Counted from the whole stretch's first letter, positions 364 through 63,919 are shown. The stretch is DNA of 63,919 nt, filler included, from Reclinomonas americana ATCC 50394 (GCA_048213135.1; 5 parts of 4 records of this genome joined end to end with filler, not necessarily neighbours in it), one strand, 5' to 3'. Notes: a model not told the origin generated them from the letters alone. Numbers and translations: made by a program.

Positions 364-3320
364 ATGTCGACGACCGACGATCGACATCGACCCGTGCTGC
401 CGACGACGACGACGACGACGACGAAGACGGCACCGACAGCGAATCGACCAAGTCACGCCGTCGGCGTTCTGTGAGAAGAACCAAGGCAGCCACTCGCAAG
501 GCACATGAAGCGAGCGACGACGAGGAGGAGGAAGACGAGGAGTTTGAGAGTGCATTTCGCCAGCGACGAGCTCCACCGTCGCCTGTGGAGACTGGTAAGA
601 AGCGAGCGGCCAAACGAGGCAAGCGTGCGGCAAAGCGTGGGAAGAGGGCGAAAGCAGTGTCGGTGTTTGTGGTGGAGGAGGCGACGGAGGACGAGGAGAG
701 CGAGGAGGCGCCGGGCAAGGCGGAGGAGAGCAGCGAGGAGTTTGGCAGTCTGACGAGTGAGGATGAGGATGAGGAGGTGGCGAAACCGAGGGCGAAGCGT
801 GGGAAGAAGGCGGCTGCAGCTCGACGGCCAGTGACACNNNNNNNNNNNNNNNNNNNNNNNNNNNNNNNNNNNNNNNNNNNNNNNNNNNNNNNNNNNNNNN
901 NNNNNNNNNNNNNNNNNNNNNNNNNNNNNNNNNNNNNNNNNNNNNNNNNNNNNNNNNNNNNNNNNNNNNNNNNNNNNNNNNNNNNNNNNNNNNNNNNNNN
1001 NNNNNNNNNNNNNNNNNNNNNNNNNNNNNNNNNNNNNNNNNNNNNNNNNNNNNNNNNNNNNNNNNNNNNNNNNNNNNNNNNNNNNNNNNNNNNNNNNNNN
1101 NNNNNNNNNNNNNNNNNNNNNNNNNNNNNNNNNNNNNNNNNNNNNNNNNNNNNNNNNNNNNNNNNNNNNNNNNNNNNNNNNNNNNNNNNNNNNNNNNNNN
1201 NNNNNNNNNNNNNNNNNNNNNNNNNNNNNNNNNNNNNNNNNNNNNNNNNNNNNNNNNNNNNNNNNNNNNNNNNNNNNNNNNNNNNNNNNNNNNNNNNNNN
1301 NNNNNNNNNNNNNNNNNNNNNNNNNNNNNNNNNNNNNNNNNNNNNNNNNNNNNNNNNNNNNNNNNNNNNNNNNNNNNNNNNNNNNNNNNNNNNNNNNNNN
1401 NNNNNNNNNNNNNNNNNNNNNNNNNNNNNNNNNNNNNNNNNNNNNNNNNNNNNNNNNNNNNNNNNNNNNNNNNNNNNNNNNNNNNTCCCTCCCTCTCCCT
1501 CCTTTCCCCTGTCCCTCCCTCTCCCTCCCCCTTTCCCCTTTGCCTCCCTCTCCCTCCCCCCCTCTCCCTCTCTCCGTTTCGTGCCTCAAGTTATCTCCCG
1601 CAGACCCGACGACGACAACTCTCGTCAGAGTCGGAGAGCGATGCTGTGGTGGAGGAAGTCGACGACGACGATGGCGACGCAGACATGATGAGCGACGACA
1701 GTGATGTGGATCGTTTCAGCTGCACGTGGCCGCGCCTGTTGGGCGCGATGCCGCGATCGCCGCAGGTGGATGTGTATTTGGAGACGGAGAGCGATGGCCG
1801 AGTGGCTGCAGTGCGTAACAGCTGTCTTTTGCCCTCTATCCAAGGCAGGGAGACTTACACCTTGCGACTACAGGTGCCAGGCGTGTTGGCGCAATACTTG
1901 CGCGAGTACCAGCACGAGGGCATCAGCTTCATGTATCACTCGCTACGAAAGTACCGGGGGGCGATTCTCGGCGACGATGTTGCGTGCCCTATTGTGCACC
2001 TCTCCATGTCGATGACGCTCATGACAGCCTCGACACAGATGGGACTCGGCAAGACTGTACAGACGATTGCCGTGATCTCGGCGCTGCTGGGCAAGACGGA
2101 GCAGGATTATCGGGCCAGCAATCTCGGCAGTGTGCCCATCTCCGAAAAGCTGGTTCTGGTCTGCGTGCCGTCTTCACTGCTAAAGAACTGGGCAGCGGAG
2201 TTCAGACGGTGAGCGCCGTTTATCCCTCATGAATGCATCTTCTTGCTGACGTGGCCATCGCACAGATGGGCTCCAATTCGCACGTGCGAGTACAATAGCC
2301 GCAACCCACGCGTCCTGTCCGACATGACGCACCGCGAGAAGGGCGCTGAAGTGATGCTCTGCTCGCAGCGCATGATGGCCATGGAGAAGCATCGGGAGGC
2401 ACTGTGCTCCGTCGAGTGGGATCTGGTGGTGTTTGACGAGGTGCACAATATCAAGACGCCGACGGTGAGTTTGCTGAAGCTTCTTTGTTTGATAGCGCGA
2501 TGCTTATCCCTCGACGTCATGCAGACGGCGCTGTACGCTTCCGCCAAGGTGGTGTGCGAACACGCGCGGTTACGACTCGGTCTCAGCGGCACCATTATGC
2601 CGAACCGTCTCGACGAGCTGTTTCACGTCGTCGATTTGGTGATCCCAGGCCACCTCGGATCGCTGTCTGGGTTGCGTGCCTCCCCCTCTCCAGCCTTCCA
2701 TCAAAGCCAGGGTATTGACTGGAGAGAGGGTGGCGCACAGATTCAGGAACATGGCACAGCCGCTGGTGAAGGGCCAGGCCATCACCGCCACAGACATTCA
2801 GATAGAGGCCCAAAAGGCGGCGATGCTGCAGCTGAAAGAGCGGCTCGACCAGGTGTACTTGCGGCGGACCAAGGCGCAAGTGATGCGCGATTTGCCGAAG
2901 CAGGAGGATTTGCAGGTGTTGTGTCGGTTGACGGAGAGGCAGCGGTTTGCCTATGAGCACCTCCTCCTCCAGCCCGAGTATCAGTGGTATGAGCATCGGG
3001 AAGGCGAGTTGGGGAATAGAGGGGGAGAGATGGGGAAGGGGAAGGAAAAGGGGAAGGGAGAGACGGGGAAGGGGGAGAGGAAGAGGGGGAAGGTAAAGAG
3101 AGAGAGAAGAGAGAGAGAGAATGAGAAAGGAATGCAGAAAGTGAATGAGGGGGTGTGGGCGTGAAAGAGACAAAAGGGTAAAGATGATGAATGTAATGTG
3201 TGAATGAGTGAATGAGAGAAGAAGCATAAATACATGAAGTAGAGAGTGTAATGCAAACTGGGAGAGGGAAGGGTGAGCGATCGTTTGTTGCAATTGTTGA
3301 AATGATGTTGTATGAGAGAC

Positions 3321-3351
<31 letters not shown>

Positions 3352-15700: not shown

Positions 15701-15764
15701 CTGGGAGGGGGAGGGGGTGAGAAAGGGAAGGGGGGAGGGGGAAGGGAAAGGGAGGGGTAAGAGG

Positions 15765-16085
15765 ATGGGGGAGACGATGGGGGAGACGATGGGAGAGACG
15801 ATGGGGGAGACGATGGGGGAAGACGAAGGGGGAAGACGAAGGCGGAAGACGAAGGGGGGAGGTTGAAGGGAGGAAGGGAAGACGAAAGGTAAGACGTAAG
15901 GGGAAGACGGAAGGGGAAGACAAAAGGGGAAGACAAAGGGGGAATGAGAAGGGGGAAGACCAAGGGGGAATGAGAAGGGGGAATGAGAAGGGGGAATGAG
16001 AAGGGGGAATGAGAAGGGGGAATGAGAAGGGGGAATGAGAAGGGGGAATGAGAAGGGGGAATGAGAAGGGGAAATGAGAAGGGGG
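15765..16085 (+). repeat. Purine-rich minisatellites (12-bp gggggagacgat; 13-bp gggggaatgagaa, ~10 copies)
   Basis: Directly visible tandem units, probably intronic. Confidence 0.85.
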
Positions 16086-16309
16086 AAGACGAAGGAGGGA
16101 AGGCGAGGGGAATGCGAAGGGGGAAGACGAAGGGGGAAGACGGAAGGGGAGATGGAAGGGGAAGACGAAGGGGGGAAGACGAATTGGGGAAGACGGAAGG
16201 GGGAAGAGCATGAGGGATAGGTTGAGGGAGAGGATGGGGGAGTACATGCGGGAGAGGATGGGAGGNNNNNNNNNNNNNNNNNNNNNNNNNNNNNNNNNNN
16301 NNNNNNNNN

Positions 16310-16321
16310 TTAATTAATTAA
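16310..16321. other. Artificial contig linker TTAATTAATTAA
   Basis: Six-frame-stop linker flanked by N runs. Confidence 0.97.
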
Positions 16322-16971
16322 NNNNNNNNNNNNNNNNNNNNNNNNNNNNNNNNNNNNNNNNNNNNGTCACACTATTGCTTCGGTCTCTGACTTCAGCTGT
16401 TGCGTCTGATTCCTAAACTATTCCTTGCTGCCCTTGCTCTGCCCTTCAACGTCAATCGAATACCCAGTGCCGTCAGACTATAATTCCGATCACTGTGCAC
16501 ATTGTTGTCTTCCTCCTCTTTCTCTCATTCACTCTCTCTATGACGCTGAAGAATTGAATCTCGCTCTCTCTACCCGGTCAAAGGCGCGTTTAACCTGGGG
16601 GTTCCTCTCTGCTTCCATCACTCTACAATTTCTTGATTCCGCTTGCCTCGCTCATTTATCATCCACCACGACTTCTCTCTCTCTATTCGCCTCGCTCTTT
16701 CGAGTCTTCTAACACTGCTTTCATATGTGCTCTTGAATTGTCTGCAGTATGCCCTCCGTTCTGCTCTCTCGCCAGTAATCACAGGCTGAGCCGCCTGCTT
16801 CTGCCTCACTTCTTGTCGCTAACTATTTCCAGAGGAACAATGATCCGGGCTTTCTTCTGCGTTCCTGCACCCTCTCACCCTCGCCCTCACTCATTTCTCT
16901 CTCTGTGTGCGTCTCTCTGTCTTTATCACTCTCCTTCTCCCTCTCCTTTTCCCCTCCCTCCATCAACCCAC

Positions 16972-17756: not shown

Positions 17757-17827
<71 letters not shown>

Positions 17828-21100: not shown

Positions 21101-22565
21101 ACAGTGCGCGCGATGAGCGGTGTCTTGGTTGGGCGACTGCTGTCCGGTGCTGTGTGGCAAAGAGAGACTGAGCAGAGGAATGCACATTCCAATGTAGGTC
21201 CATCATGGAACACACCTACAGCTGAGGGAGAAGTGGGCGAGATGCTCAATGTGTCAAGCCGCTGGTGCACACGCTCCATCTCCGCATGCATTTCCACACG
21301 CATCTGATAGATCACTTGCAAGTGAGAAACAGAAAGCCATCTGCAAGTGACCGCTGCTTCGTGACAATCCACTCGACCTGCTCCACATTTGCCGCTATCA
21401 ACACTTGGTCAGCTTGACTCAGTGCACCTGCATTTACACACAGCCAGACAGCATCAGCGTCCACAGTCAAGCAAATCATCCACACACATGCACCAGCCAT
21501 CACTCTCTTCACTCACCATCACGAGCCTCGTTCAGCTGCACCACCAATTCCTCCTCCACATCCCTGCCTATCTGCAGCCGCCGAACAAGCTGATGCAACT
21601 CGCCCTCTCCTCCTCCTCTGTCACCGAGCAGAGGCACAAAGAGTGCACTAGCTCGTGCAGGGTTCGCCTGCTCAAACACCTCCCTCATTCGCTCAATTGC
21701 ATTGCGCTGTGTGACAATGAGAGAGTGATAGGTACACTCGCACAAAGAGAGATCACACTCCTCCTCCTCCTTCTCATTCTCACACACTCACCACATCACC
21801 AGCTGGAATCAGACGATCAGGCTCGTCTCTCGGGTGCTCTCGATGACCCGCCAGCAGCAAGATCGTGCAGCACAGCATCGCATCAAACGAACTGCAGTCG
21901 TGCAGCTGGCCTCGCTGATGCCACTCGCGCACCAGCTGACGCTCCTTCTCGCTCAACTGGACACACATGTCCACTCCGTCTGGCATGGTGCTGCATGTGG
22001 GAAGAAGGCGCAAAGAAAGAGAGGATGCTGGTGAGTGAGGAATGTGTGTGACAACAAAGAGGAGACATTCATCGGAAAAGAATGTGGAATCGTGTGTGGT
22101 GAGACAATGAAGAGTGCGAGAGCGGGGAGAATGGGATGACCAGTGCAGTCACTATCTGCCTCTTGCTTGCGGCAATCATATCTCTTCTCTCATTCACATC
22201 TCCATTCTGCATCCTTGTCATTGTGTGCTTCCACATCCACCCCACACATACTCACCGCACATCACGCTCACTCGGCGCCTTGCACCAGGCAACGTGATTC
22301 ACATCGGGATACGAATCGAGAAACGCCGGCAGCACTTGCTCGAGTTTGGATTGCAGAGCGCGGGTGCATGGACGAGACAGGGCCTTCACAAGGCGAATCA
22401 TGTATTCCTCATCACCAGGATCGTGATGATGACTGCATGGGAGAGGAGAGAGAGAGAGAGAGTGAAAGAAACGAATTGCACACAATGTGAGAATGATGAT
22501 GCATCTGACAACAACACAATGAGAGAGACACGCAACTCACGCGGCACTCCACTCCCACTCGCCAT
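18151..22565 (-). pseudogene. NLR-like STAND protein copy 1 (HEPN-like/NB-ARC/TPR/CaaX CSLL), in-frame TAG at 19582-19584
   Basis: Walker A VVLTGDGGTGKS, Walker B VMVLDNLGSAEQV, sensor IVVVTSR, GLPVTVALA, and 4-5 LGxxHPDTL TPRs. GAG>TAG relative to copy 3 (RARRNELVG). Confidence 0.8.
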
Positions 22566-23138: not shown

Positions 23139-24094
23139 TCTCGTCGACGGCATTGTCAGCGCCGCCTGCCTCGGCATCTTCTCATGGACAATCCTCTCGA
23201 TGAACCACGCGATCTTGACAACATGCATTCGAGCTTGGCCGAGTTGGTGATGTGCTTCCCCGAAGATCTTCAACCTGCTGGAGGACCTGGACGAGGTGCG
23301 TGCATCCGCGAGATCAGCAAGCGCACGCCTGAACTCGCGCAACTGGTGGTGTCTTCGGGTGCTCTCGGGAGTCATTGTCGACTACGTGGGCGAGACCAAG
23401 GGCAACAACCGCCTGCCGGGCATCATGTGACTCTCGGCTACATTGCCACCTTCTCCGACGCACTCGCACAACACGTGATTGCCAATGGCGGCGTGGTGCC
23501 GCTGGCGCAGGCGCTGGACTCGGAGAAGGAGGATCACCTGCGTGCGGCCGCCGCCTGGTCACTGAGTCAGATTGGTCGCCACTCGTCGGAGCACTCGAAG
23601 GCCGTGACCGACGCCGAGGTGTTGCCGCTGCTGCTCGACGCGTTCCTCGACCCGCAATCGTCGGACGACCTGAAGACCAAGGCCAAGCGCGCACTCAAGT
23701 CGGTGGTGCAAAAATGCCTCCACTTGCCGGCGCTGCAACCACTGCTCTCGCGCGCCCCCGTCAACATCCTCACACACGTCACTGGTCAGTACGCCAAGGT
23801 GCTGCCGGGCGATCGGACAGCAAGACGAGCATTTGTGTCGGATGGTGGTCTGGAGATGCTGCAGCGCATTTCCGAGCACGCACCCGAGGGCTCTGAGTTG
23901 CAGTTTCGTTGCTCTTCCTCACTGCTCTCCCACTCTCTTTGCTCGTGTGCTCATGATCATCATGCCCGTGTTACAGAAAGAACATTGACACAATCAACGC
24001 ATGCTACCCCGACGAGATTGTCAAGTACTACTCACCCGGCTTCTCCAAGAACTTTGACAAGCTCATTGACAACTACGCACCGCCACTCGAGTAA
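23139..24094 (+). pseudogene. SPAG6: Chimeric pseudogene: COA3-like exon 2 fragment fused to the C-terminal half of SPAG6/PF16 (copy 1)
   Basis: IREISKRTPELAQLVV, KGNNRLPGIM, EDHLRAAAAWSLSQIGRHS, SSDDLKTKAKRALKSVVQKC and LQ|KNIDTINACYPDEIVKYYSPG match SPAG6 armadillo repeats. The 5' part has frameshifts and the N-terminal half is absent. Confidence 0.88.
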
Positions 24095-24254: not shown

Positions 24255-24635
24255 ATGCGCGACCGTCGAGTGCCACTCTCTCGCGTGTTGCAAGTGGCGA
24301 CTGTGATGCTCATGGCGATGCTCATCGTCTATGTGCTTGTTGTCACACAGAAGAGAGTTTCGTGTGTTGGTCTCGCAGTGTGTTTCTCTCTGTGCATGTG
24401 CTGACGCTGTTTGTTCTCTCTCTCCCTCTCTCTCCTTCTTCTTCTTCTTCTCTTCTTCTTGTCAGCGTGATAACGAGAATGTGACTGCGACCCTGCAGCG
24501 CACTGATGATGATGATGAGAATGATTGCGATGATGATCAAGTGGGATTTCCGTGGTCGCTGTTTGGGATGGACGAGTCGGCGACGCCTGTGCTGTTGAAG
24601 GCGCCGTTTGTTGCGGTGAGCTTGTTGGGATGCTT

Positions 24636-24670: not shown

Positions 24671-25136
24671 TCGNNNNNNNNNNNNNNNNNNNNNNNNNNN
24701 NNNNNNNNNNNNNNNNNNNNNNNNNNNNNNNNNNNNNNNNNNNNNNNNNNNNNNNNNNNNNNNNNNNNNNNNNNNNNNNNNNNNNNNNNNNNNNNNNNNN
24801 NNNNNNNNNNNNNNNNNNNNNNNNNNNNNNNNNNNNNNNNNNNNNNNNNNNNNNNNNNNNNNNNNNNNNNNNNNNNNNNNNNNNNNNNNNNNNNNNNNNN
24901 NNNNNNNNNNNNNNNNNNNNNNNNNNNNNNNNNNNNNNNNNNNNNNNNNNNNNNNNNNNNNNNNNNNNNNNNNNNNNNNNNNNNNNNNNNNNNNNNNNNN
25001 NNNNNNNNNNNNNNNNNNNNNNNNNNNNNNNNNNNNNTTTCCGGTGGTCGTGTTTGGGTAGTGGACGAGTCGGCGACGCCTCGTGCTGTTGTAGGCGCCG
25101 TTTCGTTGTCGGTGGTAGCGTTCGTTGGTAGTGTCT

Positions 25137-25174: not shown

Positions 25175-27115
25175 TGTCACTAAGTTTCTGTCTTCCTCAT
25201 TATCACTCTCCCTCTCTCCATCTCTGCTTCTCTGCATTGCCATCGCTGTCGCAGCTTCTCTTGCCTTCTGAGTGTTCCTCGCTCATGTGTTTCCCTTTCT
25301 TTGCATTCTCTGATCCATTCTCTGTGTCTCTGTTTCTGCATTTCACTCTCTTCTCTGTATTTCTCTGCCTGTTACTTGCTTCCCTCCCTCCTTGCGTGCT
25401 TATTACTTTCTTCCCTCTCACTCTTTCCCTTCCCTCATCCGTCCCCGCAGCCCATCAACACCAGCGACTGGCTGCTGGTGAGCGAGGACAGCGTGCGTCT
25501 GCAATCACCGCGATCGGGCGCCTCGCAAGTGTTGGTGGAGAAAGATGCAGTGTTGTTGAGCGACGGTGGCATGTGTGGCGTGACGTTGCAGCGGTTGCCG
25601 CATTTTGATTTGGTGCGTGTGTGAGGCGACGATTATGCTCTTGTCTCACAGATCACTGACGCTTTGAAATGCAGCCTGCCGACTTTTGTGTCGCGGCACC
25701 GATTCGAGCGCCTCGCAATCGACCGCACGAGTTGGGCTCCCCTGTCATCACCAAGGACGATGGTCGAGTCATGTGTCACGACAAAAGTGATCCTGTGCTC
25801 TCCTTTGTGGCCACGGTGCACAATGCGGTGCGTGAGGTGACTGTCAGGGAGTGAAAGGAACCGCTCCTCATGGCACGTTCCTCTCGCTCGCTGCTGGTGA
25901 CCCCAGATGGCAAGGTGTTCACTCGACAGCACATGTGGGCGTCGCATCGGCTGGACGGAGTCGATCGTGATGCGTCGTACTCGTGGAAGACCAGTGAATC
26001 GGTGCTGCTGGTCGACACAGTGGTATCATTGGTGCAGCATCACGGCGACACCTTCTATCACCTGCTGGGAGAGGTGCTTCCGCGCTTCATGCAGGTGTGG
26101 GACGTGGCGCGGGAGCACGAACCACATGCCCTGCTGCTCGTGCGCGACAATGCGTACGGATCGCACGTGGTGTATGACTATTTCGCACTGCTGGGCATTG
26201 GCAGAGACAGGGTGCGATGTGGTGTGCACAGCCTGTTCTTTGTTCGTAGGGAAGCTCATTCCTGCTGTGGCAGATCCTTCTGAATCCACCCGCAGTGTTG
26301 GCGCGACGAGTGCTTGTTGCGCAGGGTGTGCGAGGAGGCGCCGCGCAGCCTGCTCTGTTGCATGAAATGTCTCGCGTGTTTCACTCGCTGCATGGCGTGG
26401 CTTTGTGTTCGCAAGTTCAGGAATTTAGAAGCAGTTGCGTATCCTGAGCTTTGCTTGGTCGCCGGTGGGCATGGTCTCATCTTCGCGCCAGAACATGACG
26501 AAGAGTGGCGCCAATCTGCTCTCCACAATGGTCGCCCTCGGCGGTACGTGCTGGTCGTTCAACGGCCCGGCACTCGATCCCTGACCACGATGGAGAGAGT
26601 GTGTACTTCATCTTACCACACTTGTGCCTTCGTTGTCTCTGACGCTTCTGCGTCTTATACAGGTCCTGCAACTCATTGGCGAGGAGTTCCCGCACTGGCA
26701 TGTCTCCTCGTTCGACGCCCAGTCGGCACTGCACAGCGTGGCACAATTTGCTCGCAGCGACATTGTGCTGGGGCCGCACGGAGCGGCCTTTGCGCATCGA
26801 GCGTTTGTCGCTCGCCAAGACAATGGTGATCGACCGTGCTTTCATTTCGAAGTGTTGCCAGGGACTGGTCACACGCCGCCGAAAACGTGGAACCCAGTTG
26901 CGTAGCCTACTGGACGATCTTGTCGTGATATAGCAGCTGACTGGCTTGTGCAGGTGCACGTGATGATGGCCGCGTATCAAGGTTGCAGGACGTATTTGTG
27001 GTTTGACGAGAGAGCTGGCCTGCAGGATTCACTGGTGCTACCGGTGGCGCAAGCGCGCTGGCTGCTTCGTCATTTGGATGGGGAGTTGCGAGGGGAGGAG
27101 ATGACTGGCAGATAA
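24255..27115 (+). CDS. Glycosyltransferase family 61 (DUF563), type II membrane protein, copy 1
   Basis: N-terminal TM (VLQVATVMLMAMLIVYVLVV), TFYHLLGEVLPRF and ARSDIVLGPHGAAF, with about 8 introns. One acceptor reads CTG (25891-25893) where copy 2 has CAG. Confidence 0.8.
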
Positions 27116-30900: not shown

Positions 30901-32325
30901 GGCGACTGCTGTCCGGTGCTGTGTGGCAAAGAGAGAAGGGTGAGCACACACTCAATGCACATTCAATGCAAGTCCATCATGGAACACACCCGCTGCTGGA
31001 GATGAAGGAGGCGAGATGTTCAGTGTGTCAAGCCGTTGGTGCATGAGCTCCATCTCCGCGCGCATTTCCACACGCATCTGATCAATCGCATGCAAGTGAG
31101 AAACAAAGAGCAATCTGCAAGTGACCACATCTGCATGCATTCTCACTCAGCCTGCTCCACATTGGCTGCTATCGATGCCTGATCTGCTAGACTCAGCGCA
31201 CCTGCATTCACACACAAACAATCAGCATCAGCTTCCACATTCAATCAAATCATCCACAGACATGCACGAGCCATATCTCCTTCCACTCACCATCACGAGC
31301 CTCGTTCAGATGCACCACCAGTTCCTCCTCCACATCCCTGCCAATCTGCAGCTGCCGCACAAGCTGGTGCAACTCGCCCTCTCCTCCTCCTCCGTCACCG
31401 AGCAGAGGCACAAAGAGTGCACAAGCTCGTGCGGGACTCGTCTGCTCAAACACCTCCCTCATTCGCTCAATTGCATTGCGCTGTGTGACAATGAGAGAGT
31501 GATAGGTACACTCGCACAAAGAGAGATCACACTCCTCCTCCTTCCATCTCATTCTCACACACTCACCACATCACCAGCTGGAATCAGACGATCCGGCTCG
31601 TCTCTCGGGTGCTCTCGATGACCCGCCAGCAGCAAGATCGAGCAGCACAGCATCGCATCAAACGAACGGCAGTCGTGCAGCTGGCCTCGCTGACGCCACT
31701 CGCGCACCATCTGCCGCTCCTTCTCGTTCAACTGGACACACATGCCCACTCCGTCTGGCATGGTGCTGCATGTGGGGAAAGGCACAAAGAAAGAGAGGAT
31801 GCTGGTGAGTGAGGGAATGTGTGACAAGAAGGAGGGGCGATTCATCAGGGATAGAATGTGGAGACGAGCGTGGTGAGACAATGAAGAGTGCGAGAGTGGG
31901 GAGAAAGGGATGACCGGTGCGTCACCATCGGCCACTATCTTGGCAATCTTTTCTCTTCTCTCCCATTCACATCCATCTGCATCTTGCCATCGTGTGCTTC
32001 CCCATCCTTCCCACACACTCACCGCACATCACGCTCACTCGGCGCCTTGCACCACTCGGCGACGTGATTCACACCGGGATACGAATCGAGAAACGCCGGC
32101 AGCACTTGCTCGAGTTTGGATTGCAGAGCGCGGGTGCATGGACGAGACAGGGCCTTGACAAGGCGCATCGCACATTCCTCATCACCAGCATCGTGATGAT
32201 GACTGTGTGCGAGAGAGAGAGAGAGAGGAGAGTGACAGGGAACGAATCACACAAAATGTGAGAATGATGATGATGATGCATCTGACAACAACATACTGAG
32301 GGAGACACGCAACTCACGCGGCACT
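27783..32325 (-). pseudogene. NLR-like STAND protein copy 2 (polyQ, CaaX CSLM), 2-nt deletion frameshift at ~30347
   Basis: Same motifs as copy 1. ATGGCCGCAGGTGGAT versus ATGGCCGGTCAGGTGGAT (copy 1) shifts the frame before Walker B. The start codon falls in the gap at 32326. Confidence 0.8.
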
Positions 32326-32502: not shown

Positions 32503-33413
32503 CCTCGTCGGTGGCATGTACAGCACCGCCTGCCTCGGCATCTTCTCATGGACAATCCTCTCGATGAACCACGATGTTGACAACGTGCATTCGAGCTTGG
32601 CCGAGTTGGTGGTGATCTTAGTAAGATCTTCAACCTACTGATGGACCTGGACGAGGTGCCTGCATTTGCGAGATCAGCAAGCACACGCCGGAACTCGCGC
32701 AACTGGTGGTGTCGTCAGGTGCTCCGGGCGTCATTGTCGACTACGTGGGCGAGACCAAGGGCAACAGCCGCCTGCCGGGCATCATGAGACTCTCGGCTAC
32801 ATTGCCGCCATTCTCCGACGCCCTCGCACAACACGTGATTGCCACTCGGGGAAGGAGGATCACCTGCGTGCCTGGTCACTGAGTCAGATTGGTCGTCACT
32901 CGTCGGAGCACTCCAAGGCCGTCACCGACGCCGAAGTGTTGCCGCTGCTGCTCGATGCCTTCCTCGACCCGCAATCGTCGGACGACCTGAAGACCAAGGC
33001 CAAGCGCGCACTCAAGTCGGTGGTGCAAAAATGCCTCCACTTGCCGGCGCTGCAACCACTGCTCTCTCGCGCGCTCCCGTCAGCATCCTCACACACGTTA
33101 CTGGCCAGTACGCCAAGGTGCTGCCGGGCGATCGGACAGCAAGACGAGCATTTGTGTCGGGCGGTGGGCTGGAGATGCTGCAGCGCATTTCCGAGCACGT
33201 ACCCGAGGGCTCTGAGTTGCAGTTTCGTTGCTCTTCCTCACTGCTCTCTCTCACTCTCTTCTCCTCGTGTGCTCATCATCATGCCCGTGTTACAGAAAGA
33301 ACATTGACACGATCAACGCATGCTACCCCGACGAGATTGTCAAGTACTACTCACCCGGCTTCTCCAAGAACTTTGACGAGCTCATTGACAACTACGCACC
33401 GCCACTCGAGTAA
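32503..33413 (+). pseudogene. SPAG6: COA3-fragment/SPAG6 chimeric pseudogene, copy 2
   Basis: Homologous to 23139-24094 with additional deletions and a frameshift. Confidence 0.85.
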
Positions 33414-33589: not shown

Positions 33590-36116
33590 TCGTGCTGTTG
33601 TAAGGACGCCGTTTCGTTTGTCGGTGAGCTCTCTCTCTCTCTCTCCTCCTCCTCCTCTCTCTCTCTCTCTCCCTCTCTTTGTGCCTCCGCTTGTCACTGC
33701 TTCTGTCTTCCTCTTTATCACTCTCCCTCACTCTGTCTCTGCTTCATATTCTTCCTTCGCGCTCTCGCTCGCATTCCTCGCTGTCTATCTCACTCTCATT
33801 CTGTCTCTGCTTCTCTGCATTGCCATCGCTCTCGCAGCGTCTCTTGACTTCTGAGCCTTCCTTGCTCATATGTTTCCCTTCCTTGCCCTTCCATGGCATG
33901 CAATCCGCACTCTCATTATCTCACTGCATGTCACTCTGCTTCTCTGTATTGCTCTCTTTCTCTCTCTTTGTGCCTCTGCTCGGTACTTGCATCTCTTCCT
34001 CCTTGCATACTCATTACTCTCCTCCCTCTCACTCTTTCCCTTCCCTCCTCCGTCGCCCAGCCCATCAACACCAGCGACTGGCTGCTGGTGAGCGCGGACA
34101 GCGTGTGTCTGCAATCCCCGCGATTTGGCGCCTTGCAAGTATTCGTGGAGAACGATGCAGTGTTGTTGTATGACGGAAGCACTTGTGGCGTGACACTGCA
34201 GCAGTTGCCGCATTTTGACTTGGNNNNNNNNNNNNNNNNNNNNNNNNNNNNNNNNNNNNNNNNNNNNNNNNNNNNNNNNNNNNNNNNNNNNNNNNNNNNN
34301 NNNNNNNNNNNNNNNNNNNNNNNNNNNNNNNNNNNNNNNNNNNNNNNNNNNNNNNNNNNNNNNNNNNNNNNNNNNNNNNNNNNNNNNNNNNNNNNNNNNN
34401 NNNNNNNNNNNNNNNNNNNNNNNNNNNNNNNNNNNNNNNNNNNNNNNNNNNNNNNNNNNNNNNNNNNNNNNNNNNNNNNNNNNNNNNNNNNNNNNNNNNN
34501 NNNNNNNNNNNNNNNNNNNNNNNNNNNNNNNNNNNNNNNNNNNNNNNNNNNNNNNNNNNNNNNNNNNNNNNNNNNNNNNNNNNNNNNNNNNNNNNNNNNN
34601 NNNNNNNNNNNNNGTGTGTGTGAGGCGATATGATGTGCTCGTCTCCCGGATCACTGACGCTTAGAAGTGCAGCCTGCCGACTTTTGTGTCGCGGCACCGA
34701 TTCGGGCGCCTCGCAATCGACCGCACGAGTTGGGTACGCCTGTCATCACCATGGACGATGGTCGAGTCATGTGTCACGACAAAAGTGGTCCTGTGCTCTC
34801 CTTTGTGGCCACGGTGCACAATGCGGTGCGTGAGGTGACTGCAAAGGGAAGAGAGAGGAGCCTCTCCTCATACCATGTTCCTCCCGCTCGCAGCTGGTGA
34901 CACCAGATGGAAAGGTGTTCACTCGACAGCACATGTGGGTGTCGCATCGGCTGGATGGGGTCGATCGTGATGCATCGTACTCGTGGAAGACCAGCGAATC
35001 AGTGCTGCTCGTCGACACGTTGGTATCATTGGTCCAGCATCACGGCGACGCATTCTATCACCTGCTGGGAGAGGTGCTGCCACGCTTCGTGCAAGTGTGG
35101 AACGTGGTGCGGGAGCAGGAACCGCATGCCCTGCTCCTCGTGCGAGACAATGCGTATGGATCGCATGTGGTGTATGACTATTTCGCACTGCTGGGTATTG
35201 GCAGGGAACGGGTGCGATGTGGTGTGTATGGCCTGTTTTTTTACGTCGGAAAGCTCATTCTGGTTGTCGCAGATCCTTCTGAATCCCCCCACAGTGTTGG
35301 CGCGGCGAGTGCTTGTTGCGCAGGGCGTGCGAGGAGGCGCCGCACAGCCTGCGTTGTTGCATGAAATGTCTCGCGTGTTTCACTCGCTGCATGGCGTGGC
35401 TTTGCGTGCGCAGGTTCAGGAATTTCGAAGCAGTTGCGCATCCTGAGCTTTGCTTGTTCGCCAGTGGGCAAGGTCTCATCTTCACCACAGAGCATGACGA
35501 GGAGTGGCGCGAATCTGCTGTCCACAATGGTCGTCCTCGACTGTACGTACTGGTCATCCAACGACCGGGCACTCGAACCCTGACCACGATGGAGAGGGCA
35601 TGTACTTCTTCTCGCACTTATGCCTTCGTTGTCTCTGACGATTCTTTGTGTGTGGCACAGGTCCTGTCACTCATTGGCGAAGAATTCCCGCACTGGCATG
35701 TCTCCTCGTTCGACACCACTCGATCGGCACTGCACAGCGTGGCACAGTTTGCTCGCAGCGACATCGTGCTGGGGCCACACGGAGCGGCCTTTGCGCATCG
35801 TGCCTTTGTCGCGCGCCAAGACAATGATGATCGACCGTGCTTTCACGTGGAAGTGCTGCCAGGAACTGGGCACACGCCGCCGAAAACGTGGAATCCGGTT
35901 GCGTAGCCTTCTGGACGATTGTGTTCTGATTTAGCCGCTCATTGGCGTGTGCAGGTGCATGTGATGATGGCCGCGTATCAAGGGTGCAGCACGTATGTGT
36001 GGTTTGACGAGAGAGCTGGCCTGCAGGATTCGCTGGTGCTCCCGGTGGCACAGGCACGCTGGCTTCTTCGTCACTTGGATGGCGTGTCGCGACGCGAGGA
36101 GAGGGCTGGTGATTGA
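33590..36116 (+). CDS. Glycosyltransferase family 61, copy 2 (5' exons lost in gap)
   Basis: AFYHLLGEVLPRF, ARSDIVLGPHGAAF, WNP|VHVMMAAYQGC...AGD*. Canonical acceptors. Confidence 0.8.
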
Positions 36117-39800: not shown

Positions 39801-41241
39801 GCAATGAGTGCTGTCTTGCGTGGGTGACTGCTGTCTGGTGCTGTGTGGCAAAGAGAGAGTGAGCAGAGCAATGCACAATGCAATGAAGATCAACCGCGGA
39901 ACACACCTGCAGCAGAGGGAGAAGTGGGTGATATGCTTATTGTGTCAAGCCGTTGGTGCACACGCTCCATCTCACCACGCATCTGATCAATCGCATGCAA
40001 GTGAGAAACAGAGAGCCATCTGCAAGTGCCAGCCTCCTCACGCATCCTTACTCAACTTGCTCCATGTGTGCTAGCAGCAACGACTGGTCTGCTTGACTCA
40101 GTGCACCTGCATTCACACACAACAAAGGCAGCATCAGCTTTCACCTTCAATCAAATCACATACACACAAGCACGAGCCATCTTTCTCCTCCCACTCACCA
40201 TCACGAGCCTCATTCAGCTGCACCACCAATTCTTCCTCCACATCCCTGCCAACTTGCAGTCGCCGCACAAGCTGATGCAACTCGCCCTCTCCTCCTCTGT
40301 CTCCCAGCAGAGGCACAAAGTGTGCACGAGCTCGTGCGGGACTCGTCTGCTCAAACACCTCCCGCATTCGCTCAATCGCATTGCGCTGTGTGACAACGAG
40401 AAAGTGAGAGACATGATCCCAGAGAGAGATCACACTCCTCCTCCTCCTTCCATCTCCTTCTCATTCTCACACACTCACCACATCACCAGCTGGAATCAGA
40501 CGATCCGGCTCGTCTCTCGGGTGCTCTCGATGACCCGCCAGCAGCAGGATCGAGCAGCACAGCATTGCATCAAACGAGCAGCAGTCGTGCAGCTGGCCTC
40601 GCTGGTGCCACTCGTGCACCGTCTGCTGCTCCTTCTCGCTCAACTGGACACACATGTCCACTCCGTCTGGCATAGTGCTGCATGTGGGGAAAGGCACAAT
40701 GAAAGAGAATGCTGGTGAGTGAGGGAGGTGAGTGACAAGAAAGAGGGGGGATTCATCAGGGATAGAATGTGGAGACGAGTGGTGAGACGATGAAGAGAGG
40801 GAGAGCATGGAGAAAGGGATGCCAGTAATCTGCCATTTGCTTGTGGCAATCTTTTCTCTTCTCTCATTCTCTTCTCTCATCTGCATCTTGCCATCGTGTG
40901 CTTCCCCATCCTTCCCACACACTCACCGCACATCACGCTCACTCGGCGCCTTGCACCACTCGGCGATATGATTCACACCGGGATACGAATCGAGAAACGC
41001 CGGCAGCACTTGCTCGAGCTTGGATTGCAGAGCGCGGGTGCATGGACGAGATAGGGCTCTGGCAAGGCGAATCATGCATTCCTCATCACCAGCATCGTGA
41101 TGATGACTGCATGAGGAGGAGAGAAGGAGAGTGACAGGGAACGAATCAGACACAACGTGAGTATGATGCTGATGATGCATCTGACAACAACACAATGAGA
41201 GAGACACGCAACTCACGCGGCACTCCACTCCCACTCGCCAT
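36802..41241 (-). CDS. NLR-like STAND protein copy 3 (HEPN-like/NB-ARC/TPR/polyQ), apparently intact but with the CaaX Cys codon changed to TGA
   Basis: About 10 exons splice in frame from MASGSGVPR. Motifs VVLTGDGGTGKS, VMVLDNVGSAEQV, VVVTSR and GLPVTVALA, then TPRs. Ends AGC AAA TGA TCA TTG ATG TGA. One GC donor (HVK|gcgtgt). Confidence 0.8.
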
Positions 41242-42718: not shown

Positions 42719-42913
42719 TGATTACCACGACGACAACAACAGTAGCTTGTTGGTTGTTGTTGTGAATGATTGTTTCCTTTTTTCCCGAGAAGTGAAGGCA
42801 ACGGAGAGTGCACATTGTTTCTGTCTGTGTCCTCTCTCGTGTTTGCTTGTTTTGTTGAAGAAGATGTTGNNNNNNNNNNNNNNNNNNNNNNNNNNNNNNN
42901 NNNNNNNNNNNNN

Positions 42914-42925
42914 TTAATTAATTAA
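42914..42925. other. Artificial contig linker TTAATTAATTAA
   Basis: Six-frame-stop linker flanked by N runs. Confidence 0.97.
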
Positions 42926-43025
42926 NNNNNNNNNNNNNNNNNNNNNNNNNNNNNNNNNNNNNNNNNNNNTCTCTCTCTTCCCCCTTTCTCTTCTCCCTCC
43001 TCATTCCCCTCTTGCCAGTGTACGC

Positions 43026-45464: not shown

Positions 45465-45559
45465 CAGGAAGAGAGAGAGTGTCGCAGTGGACAGTGCTCG
45501 CGGGGCTTTGTCTCCTGGTCTTTACACAACGACCACGCAGTCGTTTTTTCGCTTTGGAT

Positions 45560-46050: not shown

Positions 46051-46102
46051 CAGCTGCGACGGACAGTCGCTGCTCGCTCTGTCCTCATTTGTACTTGATT
46101 CA

Positions 46103-49100
46103 ATGAAGGGCGGTGGAAAGCAAGTGCAACGACGACGAGTGAGCACTCGAGGTACGCCACCCCCCACTCTCTCTATCCACCTCTGTTTGCCTCAGCGGCT
46201 GATTGCGCGCGTCCGTGTGTTTGTTTTTGTGCGTGTGTGTGCGCCATGTGCACATTCACATGCACAGCCCACCCGAGCAGCAGCCCGGCAGTGGCCACTC
46301 CGCCTGCCTCCAAGTGCGTTTCCTCTCTCATCATTATTACACTACATGTGCACATTGCTCATTCGTACTGTGTGCAGAGCGGCTGGTGTGCAGAAGAAGA
46401 GCAAGAAGACTGCTGTCAAGTCCAAGCCCACAGCAGGCAAGGGCAAGAAGAAGCAGTTGGTCGTCCAGTCGTCCTCTGAGGAGGAGGAGGATGAGGCGAG
46501 CGGAGATGACTTTGGCGACATGGAGTTGATGGATGCGGATGGCATTGAGGCGCAGCTGGCCGACATGGGAAGCGATGACTCAGGTCGGGCGATTGCACAC
46601 AGACTAGTCTCTCTCTTTGTGCTCACTGCTCACTGTGCAGAGGATGACTTTATGGAGGAAGTCGATGAGTTTGACACGGATGCGTATGAGGTGCCGCCGG
46701 AGCTCATGGACAGCGATGAGGAAGAGGAGGATGTGGACCCGGATGCGCCCACTCCCGACGCCAAGCAGGCGAAGAAGGCCGCCAAGTCGGGCTTCTCCGA
46801 CGAGAACGCGAAGTGGTTGAAGCCGAAGAAGGGCAAGAAGGCGGCGTTGTTTGACGAGGACGACGATGACGATGAGGACGAGGATGAGGTTGCGGATCAT
46901 GGTGACAGCGATGATGATGATGAGGAAGAGGAGGAGGAGGAGAAGGAGACCAAGTTTGAGCGCAAGGCGCGCAAGCTGGAGGTGGAGATGGAGCAGCAGG
47001 AGAAGGATGCGGCGGCGGAGTTGGAGGAGTCCAAGCAGGCGGAGGATGAGCTGGGGGATTTGATGGATGCGGAGAAGGAGGCGGCGGAAGGTGAATGGAA
47101 AGGGAAAGGGCGGAGAGGGAACGGGGAGCGAAAAGGGAAAGGGAGGGAGATGTGATGGTGTTGGTGCATGGAGACGAGGTGTATTTTGTTGCACTCCTCT
47201 TGCTCCTTTTTTCTCCTGGTCTATTATTTCTTCTCTTCTCTCCCCTTCATCTTCTTGCTTTTCTTCCTTGTTGTGTTGTTCTTCTCCGTCGTGAGTATGC
47301 AGAGACTTGACAGTGAGCCATGCAGAACAAGGTGCGTTGGGCAGAGAAAGACAGAGGTGGTGAGAATGATAACGCTCTAGTTGACGAGAGAGTGAGAGAG
47401 AGAAAGGACGAAAGAAGAGAGGCACAAGCAGGGAGGGCGAGAAAGAGAGCGATGAAGTGAGGGACGCAGCAGGTGGATGCGTGTGTGAAAAAAGGTTCCA
47501 TGGGAGAAGGAGTGTGAGTGCGTGTGTGACAGAGAGAGAGAGAAAGGGAACGGGAAAGGGAAACTGCATAAGTTTCTTCGTGTGGAATGGTAGACTCCAA
47601 GAATGCCGAGGGAGAATGAGAAGTAATGACAACGGACGGAAGAGAAGGAGGAAGAGAGAAATGGGTAAGCTTCAGTCATATTTGGGTGTGGATATGACAG
47701 ACTCTGAGAGTGGCAAGGGAGAGTGTGAATGAGAGAGGGACAAGGAATGAGAGAGAGAGTGTGTGTGAGAAAGGGAAAACTTTAGTGTGTCTGCGTGTGG
47801 AACAGACAGACTCTGAGAGTGCCATGAGAGAAGGTGAATGAGAGAACTTAATGGATCGGAATGAAGGACAGAGAGCAAGGTAGAAACTCCATTTGTATCT
47901 GCGTGTGGAATGCGGGGCCGTATTCTTCCTCATGAGACTCATCATTCCCTTTGCCCTCCATGCAGCCGCCCAGCACGGCCTCCTCATCGAAGATCTGAGC
48001 GTGGTGCAAGATCGCATCCAGCGTGTCATGCTGGTGCTGGCCGATTTCAAGGAGCGCCGCGATCCGAACCGCTCTCGCAAGGAGTACACCGACATGTTGA
48101 AGGTCGGTCCTCCTTTTCCTTTCCCTCCCCCTTTCCTTTTTGCCCACACGCCACTGTGCAGCGCGACCTGGCCACCTACTACGGATACGTGCCGTACCTG
48201 ATTGAAAAGTTCAGCGAGCTGTTCCCGCCGGACGAGCTCATTGAGTTCCTCGACGCCAACGAGCAGCCGAGACCCATCACCATTCGCGTGAACACGCTGC
48301 GCACACGACGACGCGACTTGGCGCAGGCGCTGATTGCGCGCGGTGTCAATGTCGATCCGATTGACAAGTGGTCGAAGGTCGGTCTGCAAGTGTTTGACAG
48401 CCCGGTGCCGATTGGCGCCACGCCCGAGTACCTGGCGGGCCAGTACATGCTGCAGGTATTTGTCTTGTCTCCCAAGAGTTGTGTGCGGAGAGGAGGTGCT
48501 CATAATTTTTGTTGGTGATGAATGCAGAGCGCTTCGTCGTTCCTCCCGGTGCTGGCGTTGCAGCCGATGGAGAATGAGAGAATTCTCGACATGGCGGCGG
48601 CTCCCGGCGGCAAGACGTCCTACATTGGTGAGCGACGGCGATGGAGGAGCGGGGATCTGTGATTTTGTTGACTGACTCACTTTTCGTACTCAGCGGCATT
48701 GATGCGCAACACGGGCACGCTGATTGCCAACGATTCGAGTCGCGAGCGCCTGCGCTCCGTGTCGGCCAACTTGGCGCGCATGGGTTTGTTGTTCATGGAG
48801 CGATGCGTGTCTTTGTCAATCAACTCACTTGGCATGACCCAGGCGTGCACAACACGGTGATTACGAATCTCGACGGCCGCAAGATACCCGAGCACATGAC
48901 GCACTTTGATCGGTGTCTGCTCGACGCCCCGTGCTCCGGCCTCGGTGTCATTTCGCGCGACCCGTCCGTCAAAGTCTCCAAGGTACGAATGGGTGTCGCG
49001 TCTGTTGCAATGTGTGCACAAAGTGCTCATCGATGCGTGCTGCAGACGGATCGCGACATTGTGTTTTGCTCGCAGCTGCAGAAGGAGTTGATCCTCGCCG

Positions 49101-60843: not shown

Positions 60844-60919
60844 NNNNNNNNNNNNNNNNNNNNNNNNNNNNNNNNNNNNNNNNNNNNATAGCACATGCGC
60901 GTAAAATTGTAGATGCTCA

Positions 60920-63919
60920 CCAGGAGAAAACATGCCGGTAGCCGGGAAGTTGACAAACGAATACCCGGCGTCCAAAGTCGACGCAGGATACGATGTGGCA
61001 GCTCGAACTCCACCAAACACCTCCAGCGTCATGTCCGTCGACGACAGGGCCTCGTGCACACGGACACGTCCCGCGCCATCGACACCGTATCCAATGACCG
61101 CAAGATTAAAGTCGCCCACCGGATTCAGAGACAGCTTGAGACCGGAGGCTGTGAGAGCGCGATTGCTTGCTGCGCTGGCGGCCTGCGAGCCCAAACCGAG
61201 ACGAAGCGTCGATCCGCCGACGCTAAAGTCGCCGGATACGAGGACTGCAGTGCCCGTGTTCGGCGGCACCATTATGCGCCCGACGCCTTGATTCGACAAT
61301 GTCAATACGCTGCTGTCCGCCGCGGTGCCGCCTGTGCCACGCAACACAACGGAGTGAGCAGCAAGAAAAGCGTGGCATTGATGAAGTACCGTCGGTGGCA
61401 CGCACACGTACGTACCAATGGCAAACATGCCGGTGAGTGCGTCCGATTCGAAGGAATAGCCGGCATTCGAAGTCGACGGGTCGTTCGTCACGCCCTTGTT
61501 GACTCGCACGCCACCGGCCACGTCGATCTGAGCGCGTGGGTTCAAGTGACCAAAGCTGGTGTACCCGGTAAGCGGTTGGATTTTGAGAGCGCGATTGCCG
61601 ACTTGGAGGCCTGCACACACAAACACAGAGCGCACCATGGTTATACACACGCACACGCACATGTTGGCAAGCGTGGTGAGAAAAAGGACGTACCACCACT
61701 AAAGTCCTCCTGATAATTGAGCACCAGCGTCGGCTGTGTCGATGTGGCGTAGATGACTTGCATTGCTCGCGCAAGACCATACGAGTCCGCCAAGTTGGAG
61801 GTGGAGACCGAGTCCACGGCCTCTGAGCGGCGACCGAGAGCCAGAGTAGAGCCACCAATGTACGCGCTTCCATTTGCCACCATGTGCCAGTATTGAGTGT
61901 TGCTGCTGTCTTCTTTTGATACGCGCAGCATTTCGGTGCCGGTGACCACCAAACTCATAACAGGGTGAGTGGTGGGTGCTGCAACAGCGAGCGACGCAGA
62001 GGGTAGAAAGTGATGACAGTAATTGCGACCATGAGCAAGTGCGATGTTGCTGTGGCGCAAAAAGTACGAACCACGGGTCGATAGTGATCCGCCTCGAGTG
62101 CTCCCCGGCGCTGACCGAGACATTGCATCGGTGCTGCGGGGACTGGCTTCTGCGTCTACGGCGGACAGGAATAAACATGAACGTCAATACGAACACGTCA
62201 CCAACTGCAGCGAAGGAGCTGTGTGTGTGTGACACACCTCCACGGAAATGAGCACTCGGCTGAGACGCATCCATCGCGGTCTCCGACGTCGTTGTCACAG
62301 CACCGGAGGCGACCGACGGTGGGACACCGCCTGCGTTGAATGTTGACGAGGAGGACGATGATGATGATGATGATGATGAGGGTGAGGGTGACGGCACATG
62401 GCTACCGCGTGAGGAAATTGTAGGCGCATCGTGAGCTGGTCGGAGGGTGCACGTTGGTGACTGGCAGAGAGCGAGGAGCAACAGCAGATACGAAATGTAT
62501 ACCTCCCACAAATGCTGTGGAGCCAGAGCTCGCGCCTCGTTCGCTCGGTGCTGAAGGCACGGTGGTCGCCACCGGCGACGAGTTTGTGGTGGTCAACCGG
62601 CTGGCAAACAGACCGGTCGGAGACGCGGACGACGATGACGAGGCCGTATTGAACGTGTAGCCCACATTACCGCCCGAATCGGACGGAGTGCCACCATTGG
62701 CTTGTATGCCGCCGCCCACCTACATCAACGCGCACCATTAGCAATGCGCGCGTGGTGCACTGTGCAATCGGGACTGGGCGGACTTACATCTAGACTCTTG
62801 GTTGGATTGCTGGTTCCCACACCGACTCGCGAACTCGTTGCATCGACAACGAGTGAATTATTAGCTACAGTGAGATTACCGCTGACACTGTGGTGCGGGA
62901 AGCAGTCAGTATGTCAGCAAGGTGCGTGCCAGGAAATACACGCAAGCGAGACAACGCAACGTGGCGCTTGAATCGATTCGCACCGTATTGGACGTGGTGC
63001 TGTATGTCACTTGATCGCGATGTATGCGCCACACAAAGAAGAAGGCGATACCACAGCCGATGAGAAGCAGGACCCATGCGACCCACAGCCACGTGATGCA
63101 CAGCCGATGTCGCCGAGTCGGGGTGTCTTTTTCTGCTGCCGCCGCGGCTGCTCGTCGCAGGGCCACTGCGGCGGGCGGTGAAGCTGCCTGGAACGCCAAA
63201 TCGGGCGGTGATAGGGCAGCGGTGCGCGGGGTCATGCCCAGCGAGTCCGCCGAGGAGTCTTCGTCAAAATTCGGCGTGCGTGAACCGACGCCTGCGGTCA
63301 GACTGCGCGGGAAGTAGCGCACTTGCGGCGAGTAGATGGAGGGTGAGCGCGTCTCGCCGCCTTCCTCTGTCATGTGATTCGGGTGTGAGGCATGCAGGAG
63401 GAGGAGGAGGAGAGAGGTATGCATGAATGGTTTGTTTGGCGCACCTGCATACGGCGACATGAGACGATTGGGAAGCGGCGGTGACAGGCCCAGATACGCG
63501 TTGCTTTCGAGAGCTCCAGGTGGCTGAGGTGGCTGTTGGGGGAGAGGACACGGCATGCGAAGTGAGGCTTCACAACCACCAAACCAACAAAGGACGTGCA
63601 CGAAACTCTGGGCAGTGGCGGCAACGCAAACGTCGGCGGCAACTGGAACGAGATATCAGTGACCGGACGTGGACCCAGTCGCACGCCCCCACGCATCGCC
63701 TCTGCCGCCTGCTGCTGCTGCTGCTGCATGAGACCCGCATCACGCGCCGACAGACTCGCCGCAGTGAGCAGACCCGGCCGCAGCGGCACCACGCCCACTC
63801 CCGTCGACCCCGCCAGCGGCCGCCGCGCATGCGTATTCAACACCACAAACGGCCCATCGTCCTCCACCACCTTACCACGCGTGGTGCGTCGTCGTCCCTC
63901 TTCCTCCTCCGACGACGCT
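60920..63919 (-). CDS. Single-pass membrane protein with phage tail-fibre-like beta repeats (partial at both ends)
   Basis: Pro/Ser-rich N-region, then TM LCITWLWVAWVLLLIGCGIAFFFVW. This is followed by RVGVGTSNPTKSLD|VGG, GHLNPRAQIDVAGG, three GY(T/S)F...TG(L/M)F and two GGSTL.LG...RA...L.LN...DF repeats. Spliceosomal introns are present. Confidence 0.75.

Follow-up and report, generated by a model that had tools for sequence, protein, structure and literature searches.

In human cells, U1 small nuclear RNA (snRNA) can pair with certain donors in a shifted register, in which all of its base pairs lie one position over while cleavage still occurs at the GU; such sites are described as rare (PMC4856993, citing Roca and Krainer 2009), and an example oligonucleotide given there reads ACA^GUCAAGUAUA (throughout, a caret marks a splice junction). 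For the human bulge +2/+3 register 68 sites were predicted, of which 54 remained after curation (Roca et al. 2012; Tan et al. 2016, PMC4856993), and the validated noncanonical registers, in a tally of bulges and asymmetric loops, make up 1.5% of 201,541 human sites (PMC4856993). Tandem delta-3 donors of STAT3 exon 21 are likewise read in noncanonical U1/U6 registers (PMC11162779). Among other eukaryotes, Entamoeba combines the donor GUUUGUU with a U1 5′ end of AACAAAC, and Mastigamoeba the donor GUGCGC with ACGUAC (preprint 10.1101/2022.06.08.495308). Here we analyze the 5′ splice sites in a stretch of 63,919 nucleotides, filler included, from Reclinomonas americana ATCC 50394 (GCA_048213135.1; five parts of four records joined end to end), hereafter the window. 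An original prediction, made by reading this sequence, had proposed that many of its donors are the usual hexamers of the genome with an extra T at +3, typified by GTTGCGT, and that U1 reads them in a shifted register, possibly by way of a variant U1/U6 or of altered U1C, LUC7 or Prp8.

Like the human shifted sites, these donors have a GU followed by one extra base before the block that would pair with U1. Unlike those rare sites, they appear to open about three in ten introns of the window (6 of the 20 donors resolved by homology, and 12 of 40 curated introns when one is counted per paralogue family), and they have a strict consensus of their own, GTT(G/T)CGT, in which +3 is T and +5 is C. 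The order of GU-U and then a pairing block, with one U unpaired, also resembles the human bulge +2/+3, yet G at −1 is unfavoured here and only T is enriched, which is not what a bulge would lead one to expect. With Entamoeba and Mastigamoeba the window shares a departure from GUAAGU, either a T at +3 or a C at +4, and pairing extended to +7, but each of those organisms has a single canonical-register consensus, whereas here two classes offset by one base occur in the same genes. As in STAT3 exon 21, GTTGCGT could be cut at its GT (+1) or, 3 nt further on, at its GC (+4), although homology here favours one of them. Searches of open-access papers and preprints by heptamer or by shifted-register terms returned no report of an organism with such a donor class; the shifted-register literature, in its available portions, is otherwise human or vertebrate, and the available text of a tunicate paper raises register as an open possibility only. 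The type of site is known, and its scale would be new if the class holds genome-wide.

Results

The class stands far above chance in the window. GTTGCGT occurs 20 times, a count that no dinucleotide shuffle out of 100 attained (8.70 ± 3.10 expected); under a trinucleotide chain the expectation is 9.2 for GTTGCGT and 5.5 for GTTTCGT, of which there are 13. The same GCGT after other third bases is unenriched (GTAGCGT 2 observed against 1.8 expected, GTCGCGT 4 against 8.8, GTGGCGT 14 against 11.0); the extra base in the class donors is T specifically. Ordinary donors with G at −1 show the same level of enrichment (GGTGCGT 27 against 12.3, GGTGAGT 31 against 9.8), and GTGCGT after A, C or T stands at expectation (13 against 12.9, 11 against 15.7 and 24 against 21.3, respectively). 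Within nine confidently assigned genes, spanning 30.1 kb, all 21 copies of GTT(G/T)CGT are in the sense orientation, as compared to 28 sense and 12 antisense copies of GGTG(A/C)GT. We take three of the 21 to be non-donors from their position, since one (30495) falls within an intron and two (28725 and 37687) are embedded in a single long exon.

Gene finding by dynamic programming, with GT...AG as the only splice-site information and positions +3 to +8 unscored, gave a similar answer. The finder placed GTTNNGT at 14 of 116 donors, whereas of all 7005 GT sites in the window 104 (1.5%) have this form (p = 2.5e-9), although four of the 14 are paralogous copies, and it picked 10 of the 18 sites of the original prediction. 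An unsupervised three-component mixture, fitted to the predicted donors from random starts, recovered nnG^GTGnGTG, nnn^GTTGCGT and a CT-rich junk component. These gene finders are noisy, with false introns in CT-rich low-complexity DNA and donors off by multiples of 3, and were used for enrichment only. Two other approaches were dropped: a finder based on codon usage alone missed most short-exon genes, and an open-frame test (YAG plus branch motif, with at least 30 open codons on both sides) passed 40-45% of sites for any GT-containing motif and ranked long spurious introns first.

To place individual exon ends we built profile hidden Markov models from outside homologues of three genes that Pfam matches and homologue searches had named, an ERCC6L2-like SNF2 helicase (about 1.5-5.4 kb, plus strand; 13 ERCC6L2-like proteins), a NOP2 ribosomal RNA methyltransferase (47.9-49.8 kb, plus strand; 64 NOP2 proteins) and an ERK-type MAP kinase (MAPK; 58.4-59.9 kb, minus strand; 62 MAP kinases). 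All in-frame, stop-free junctions within 21 nt of the claimed ends were then scored whatever their dinucleotides, about 400-620 per site, so that the test was blind to motif. At all six testable sites the claimed donor was the top GT/GC-AG junction, and homology has the exon stop just ahead of the heptamer. As judged by these profiles, then, the homology-tested sites are GT-AG donors cut before the first G.

Three of the six sites lead all motif-blind junctions. In the SNF2 gene, GTTGCGT at 1979..1985 (intron 1979-2038, GDD^MGLGKT) ranks first of 588 with 107.6 bits and is the top of 15 GT/GC-AG junctions. In NOP2, GTTGCGT at 49147..49153 (intron 49147-49219, GGILV^YSTC) ranks first of 617 with 143.5 bits, and the flanking profile positions 432 and 433 are contiguous. 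On the minus strand, GTTGCGC at 59450..59456 (intron 59456-59384, HEN^IV) in the MAPK gene ranks first of 611. The other three lead the GT/GC-AG junctions. GTTTCGT at 59598..59604 (minus strand, intron 59604-59526), also in the MAPK gene, scores 33.7 bits against 25.8 for the next such junction, with 2 of 411 motif-blind junctions higher, and GTTGCGT at 4932..4938 (plus strand, intron 4932-4989) in the SNF2 gene scores 99.5 bits against 94.2, with 5 of 582 higher. The last, GTTGCGT at 2671..2677 in the same gene (intron 2671-2740), has G at −1 and scores 83.1 bits, tied with a GC donor 3 nt downstream at 2674 (83.0), and 18 of 596 motif-blind junctions score higher.

A junction search over 22 exon pairs in the three genes resolved 20, namely these six class donors and 14 ordinary ones (GTGAGC, GTGAGT, GTTCGT, GTGCGT, GTCGGT, GTATTT, GTGAGC, GTTTGT, GTACGA, GTGCGT, GTTTGA, GTGCGT, GTGCGT and GTGCGC); the remaining two pairs join 2987 to 4065 and 4157 to 4381 in the SNF2 gene. 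As a control on the method, NOP2 genes at 16 metagenome loci of other eukaryotes were treated alike, and their 37 best junctions included no class donor.

The two kinds of donor differ sharply in what they have before the cut. Among homology-resolved donors, G at −1 occurs in 1 of 6 of the class and in 13 of 14 ordinary ones (Fisher p = 0.002), in agreement with the original prediction that the class mostly lacks this G and ordinary donors mostly have it. The curated set gives 1 of 12 against 27 of 28, a contrast that is too strong, since part of the ordinary donors had been picked up by requiring G at −1. Ordinary donors follow G^GT(G/A/T)NGT, with G at −1 and +5 near-invariant (13 of 14 each, homology-resolved), +3 and +4 loose, and GTGCGT about as frequent as GTGAGT. 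The class follows N^GTT(G/T)CGT, in which the anchors are the Gs of +1 and +6 and the third base is T; G at +6 (12 of 12) and the absence of G at +5 (0 of 12) are part of how the class is defined. The base before the anchor G, at +5, is C in 11 of 12 class donors, and at the matching +4 ordinary donors have A 9, C 11, T 6 and G 2 times (p = 0.05).

Within the window, GT at +6/+7 is in excess among GTT donors: it is found in 11 of 16 curated GTT donors but in 8.4% (p = 4e-9) of the 1336 GTT sites. The five that lack it comprise GTTCGT, GTTTGT, GTTTGA and GTTGGG, each with G at both −1 and +5, and the class member at 59456 (GTTGCGC), with C at +7 and G at neither −1 nor +5. Therefore the GTT donors fall into two clean kinds, one in the canonical register with both anchor Gs and the other with the block one base further on and no need of G at −1.

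Past the donor, the two kinds of intron look alike. Median length is 73 nt in the class and 71 nt in ordinary introns, a branch-like motif is found in 11 of 12 and 26 of 28, and the 3′ end is CAG in 12 of 12 and 27 of 28, respectively. The class introns are ordinary short U2-type GT-AG introns that differ at the 5′ splice site only. U12-type introns, which likewise give a genome a second and sharply defined class of donors, open with (A/G)TATCCTT and have a TCCTTAAC-like branch near their 3′ end. Their features are absent from the class described here, in which the donors are GTT(G/T)CGT and the branch-like motifs, CTCAC, CTGAC and CTCAT, are shared with ordinary introns.

All 18 heptamers of the original prediction are present where it put them and on the strands it gave. 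As to their function as donors, we regard six as fixed by homology, ten as plausible and two, at 8966 and 58384, as doubtful. It had counted 17-18 introns in 10 unrelated genes; the heptamers are there, but their independence was overstated, because several sites claimed as distinct introns are copies of each other that arose by tandem duplication. It had missed further members at 26434, 35433, 35898, 32313, 41212 and 33222.

The duplication spans 18151-41241, where a block of a TPR-NLR gene (minus strand), a SPAG6-like gene (plus) and a GT61 gene (plus) occurs twice, at about 18-27 kb and 28-36 kb, and the NLR gene is present once more at 37-41 kb. By eye, from the alignments, duplicated exons are about 90-95% identical and the introns are visibly more diverged, with indels. 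Paralogous sets of sites are 22536, 32313 and 41212; 23903 and 33222; and 26897 and 35898. The window as a whole is gene-dense eukaryotic DNA of about 52% G+C with numerous short introns and 21 masked runs of N. An exact pattern of 44 N, 12 bases and 44 N occurs four times (16266-16365, 42870-42969, 54755-54854 and 60788-60887), next to larger runs that sum to 3920 N. Besides the genes above, searches named a SPAG6/PF16-like armadillo protein, GT61 glycosyltransferases, TPR-NLR-like genes and a SUT/SLC45-like transporter. The best outside identities were 41-67% in three homologue searches and 47-82% over the best segment at NOP2 metagenome loci (n = 20); neither the homologue nor the metagenome searches found a close relative, the NOP2 loci not being close kin. 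An Rfam scan of the window found no RNA genes, and so no U1, U5 or U6 within these 64 kb. Two introns in the genes tested by homology, of 60 nt (1979-2038) and 63 nt (48983-49045), are multiples of 3 without stops, so that read-through stays open and gene calling based on open reading frames (ORFs) would silently retain them as insertions.

The ten sites placed by other means lie at 23903, 26897, 40056, 22536, 53463, 24357, 50518, 57408, 62960 and 53603, and several of them have paralogues with which to be compared. In the SPAG6/PF16-like gene, GTTTCGT at 23903..23909 (plus strand, intron 23903-23976; copy at 33222..33228, plus strand) is flanked by exons that match solved SPAG6/PF16 structures in the PDB up to chain residue 464/467 and then from 474/475. 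Nine in-frame junctions are available, two of them with GT, at 23897 (GTTGCAG) and 23903 (GTTTCGT), and loop length and homology fit either. In GT61 copy D, GTTGCGT at 26897..26903 (plus strand, intron 26897-26953) runs into a stop two codons into read-through. Compared with copy E, in which GTTGCGT at 35898..35904 (plus strand) has G at −1, the 57 nt intron has about 10 differences by hand count, while its flanks are nearly identical and its first 12 nt are kept. The same copy holds a newly found putative donor, GTTGCGT at 26434..26440 (plus strand, intron 26434-26491), whose counterpart in copy E is GTTGCGC at 35433..35439 (plus strand) with the same acceptor. The proposed first intron of copy D, 24357-24465, would begin with GTTTCGT at 24357..24363 (plus strand), following an exon that by eye consists of a start and a hydrophobic stretch.

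Similarly, the first intron of the TPR-NLR gene in copy A (22536-22433, minus strand), which the gene finder also predicted, begins with GTTGCGT at 22530..22536, and this heptamer is identical in copy B (32307..32313, minus strand) and copy C (41206..41212, minus strand, intron 41212-41107), with 1-, 5- and 6-nt indels deeper in the intron. By paralogue alignment, a further candidate in copy C is GTTGAGT at 40050..40056 (minus strand, intron 40056-39983). The corresponding heptamer is GTCGAGT in copy A and GCTGAGT in copy B, so GAGT at +4 to +7 is kept and +2/+3 vary. In copy B, this site (about 31148, minus strand, cag^GCTGAGT) is likely a GC-AG donor that arose in one paralogue, as is that at 39459 (minus strand) in copy C, aag^GCGTGT, which corresponds to GTGTGT in copy A and GTGTGC in copy B.

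A gene at 51875-53730 (minus strand) that Pfam leaves unnamed looks like a SUT/SLC45 sucrose-type transporter, since one of its exons matches SUC1 and SLC45A4, and it may hold three class donors, at 53603, 53463 and 52716. GTTACGC at 53457..53463 (minus strand, proposed intron 53463-53405) is backed from the acceptor side, the downstream exon aligning from its first residue with SUC1 (8bb6) residues 88-132 (E = 1.9e-7). GTTATGT at 53597..53603 (minus strand, proposed intron 53603-53542, junction ..LP-Y-VTL..) was chosen by the gene finder, and PDB searches with its flanking exons gave no match. A HMMER search with the ORF 52718-53245 (minus strand) against 1.84 billion representatives returned only two weak matches (E about 6e-4), too few homologues for a profile test of this gene.

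The remaining plausible sites are all on the minus strand. The gene finder predicted GTTGCGT at 50512..50518 (proposed intron 50518-50454), which has a branch-like motif and ends in TTTGCAG, with no homology. GTTGCGT at 57402..57408 would open a 69 nt intron (57408-57340) with a branch-like CTCAC and the end CAACAG, and read-through stops after 11 codons. GTTGCGT at 62954..62960 would open a 73 nt intron (62960-62888) with two CTGAC motifs and the end CCACAG, between frames that stay open for 231 and 53 codons. These three sites, like 24357 and 53603, are proposed from open frames together with a branch-like motif and a terminal CAG. As for the two doubtful ones, GTTGAGT at 8966..8972 (plus strand) runs into TAA TAA, with no YAG acceptor within 140 nt and no branch-like motif, and GTT GAG TAA TAA may be a plain gene end; GTTGCGT at 58378..58384 (minus strand) is a putative donor after the MAPK domain for which no homologous downstream exon was found and where read-through weakly aligns with plant MAPKs. 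Candidate extra GTTTCGT donors lie on the sense strand of predicted genes at 25100 (plus), 33611 (plus) and 63606 (minus).

Discussion

When aligned on their anchors, N^GTTGCGT(G) is G^GTGCGT(G) slid by one base, and the sole difference is a T in place of the ordinary +1 G. From this pattern we infer both the pairing register and the snRNA or protein that would read the class donors, and we lean, with slightly better than even confidence, towards a reading in which the snRNA-pairing block is displaced one base downstream, U1 pairs in a shifted register and cleavage still occurs at the GT. In such a +1 shifted register, the +1G of a class donor would lie opposite the C of U1 that ordinarily meets −1G, +3U opposite the A that ordinarily meets +2U, and +6G and +7U opposite the bases that ordinarily meet +5G and +6U; the spliceosome would cut before the only GU despite the shifted U1. 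A shift is favoured over a bulge because only T is enriched, as pairing with the A that normally meets +2U would need, because G at −1 brings no advantage, as expected were its partner occupied by +1G, and because +2, which is unpaired in a shift, varies in a paralogue (GCTGAGT). The shifted-register interpretation of the original prediction is thus partly supported, in that a T-specific extra base, a −1 G that is dispensable only in the class and the move of G from +5 to +6 all fit it, but the preference for C is unlike a plain shift.

For duplex prediction we assumed the human-type U1 5′ end printed in PMC4856993, which is not necessarily that of this organism. Ordinary donors paired in the canonical register in 27 of 28 cases (median −7.0 kcal/mol), and the 12 class donors formed weak helices, seven shifted, one canonical and four other. 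Several points weigh against a shifted U1. With the assumed U1, class pairing is weak (median −2.1 kcal/mol against −7.0), and 5 of the 12 sites fall outside the shifted register. The C at +5 is preferred though a standard U1 would pair better with A, and GTTGAGT is unenriched (6 against 7.3) though GGTGAGT tops the ordinary enrichment. When −1 is not G the shifted and +2/+3-bulged registers offer equal numbers of pairs, so that sequence separates them poorly, and two class sites, 2671 and 35898, carry G at −1. Finally, the 40-intron curated set was partly hand-picked and some of its ordinary donors were found by requiring G at −1, which leaves only the homology-resolved subset unbiased, and the sample is 64 kb, part of it a tandem duplication.

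Other explanations were weighed against the same data. U1 might pair canonically at +1G/+2U, bulge out one U (+2 or +3) and resume pairing at +4, which we consider unlikely even though GU-U-GCGU accommodates a single bulged nucleotide as readily as a shift and the bulge +2/+3 register has been validated in human cells (PMC4856993). In keeping with such pairing, the duplex prediction gave mixed canonical-plus-shifted (bulge-type) helices at 2671 and 24357, which have G at −1 or −2, and CAG^GTCGAGT in NLR copy A would be expected to pair best with a bulged C and G at −1. However, a bulged base need not be T and the enrichment is T-only; moreover, a bulge leaves C9 of U1 free, so that −1 G should stay as favoured as it is in ordinary donors, and it is not. 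An snRNA that has itself changed, or a second one, is also improbable in our estimation; it could be a U1 with G at position 5 (ACGUAC/ACGCAC), a U1 variant matching GUUGCGU or a changed U6 box. The strict (G/T)CGT tail and the C at +5 call for a partner that pairs with C, co-evolved U1 5′ ends do exist in Entamoeba and Mastigamoeba (preprint 10.1101/2022.06.08.495308), and modelling an ACGUAC U1 moved the class median from −2.1 to −5.3 kcal/mol and put 11 of 12 sites in the shifted register, which makes a U1 of that type a lead for this organism. Nevertheless, some lineages, an apusomonad and Mamiellales, prefer C at +4 with a standard U1 (preprint 10.1101/2022.06.08.495308), and ordinary donors here have A at +4 as often as C (9 against 11).

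There is only a small chance, in our view, that U1 pairing is minor and that these donors are defined after U1 by U6/U5 or by proteins. The U6 ACAGA box pairs with donor positions 2-6 (preprint 10.1101/2022.06.08.495308); in a U6-based scheme the U at +2/+3 would pair with the AG of this box and, beyond a small loop, G+6/U+7 would meet its CA. The very weak U1 duplexes and the ability of T at +3 to wobble-pair with U6 are consistent with this scheme, and U6 does not have to follow U1 in its diversity of registers (PMC4856993), but displacement of both anchor Gs together by exactly one base, along with loss of −1 G, is what U1 pairing predicts, and U6 does not read −1. It is very improbable that the sites are misplaced, either because the true donor is the GC 3 nt downstream (GTT^GCGTGC, with one added Val) or because some are not introns. 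Each GTTGCG site does have this GC, always in frame, likely GC-AG donors are present in the window in NLR copies B and C, and the tie at 2671 and the doubts about 8966 and 58384 point the same way. However, the GC junction loses 4.5 to 7 bits at 1979, 4932, 49147 and 59456, four of the five GTTGCG sites, so that among homology-tested sites an exon end before the GC fits as well only at 2671; GTTTCGT sites have no GC alternative, and GCGTGC shares no feature with the ordinary donors here. Least credible of all, to a degree that is close to negligible, is a recently spread mobile intron family (introner) that ends in a shared heptamer. Many introns do share their first 7-8 bases, but the mean local score between intron bodies was 8.2 in the class (maximum 19), as compared to 7.3 (18) in ordinary, 7.5 (17) in mixed and 7.2 (14) in shuffled comparisons, and lengths and 3′ ends are those of ordinary introns. 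The class intron bodies share no sequence beyond chance and are therefore not a mobile intron family.

Taken as it stands, routine use of a shifted register would be the best fit to the sequence statistics in the window. In terms of annotation, a donor model based on a single position matrix would miss or misplace introns of this class and yield frame-shifted gene models. A bolder proposal, possible though doubtful, is that two 5′ splice-site codes exist side by side in the same genes, with about one third of introns one base off, by way of a co-evolved snRNA, either a U1 with G at position 5 (ACGUAC/ACGCAC) or a second U1 matching GUUGCGU. Shifted or bulged U1 pairing in human involves a few dozen to a few thousand sites and has been shown minigene by minigene; two such codes, if true, would mean that U1 register and cleavage site have come apart naturally across a whole genome. 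An organism with such a register, of sharp consensus, at roughly three introns in ten would offer a natural system in which to ask what fixes cleavage when U1 is one base off, be it U5, U6, Prp8, U1C or LUC7, and would show whether snRNAs co-evolve with such a donor class.

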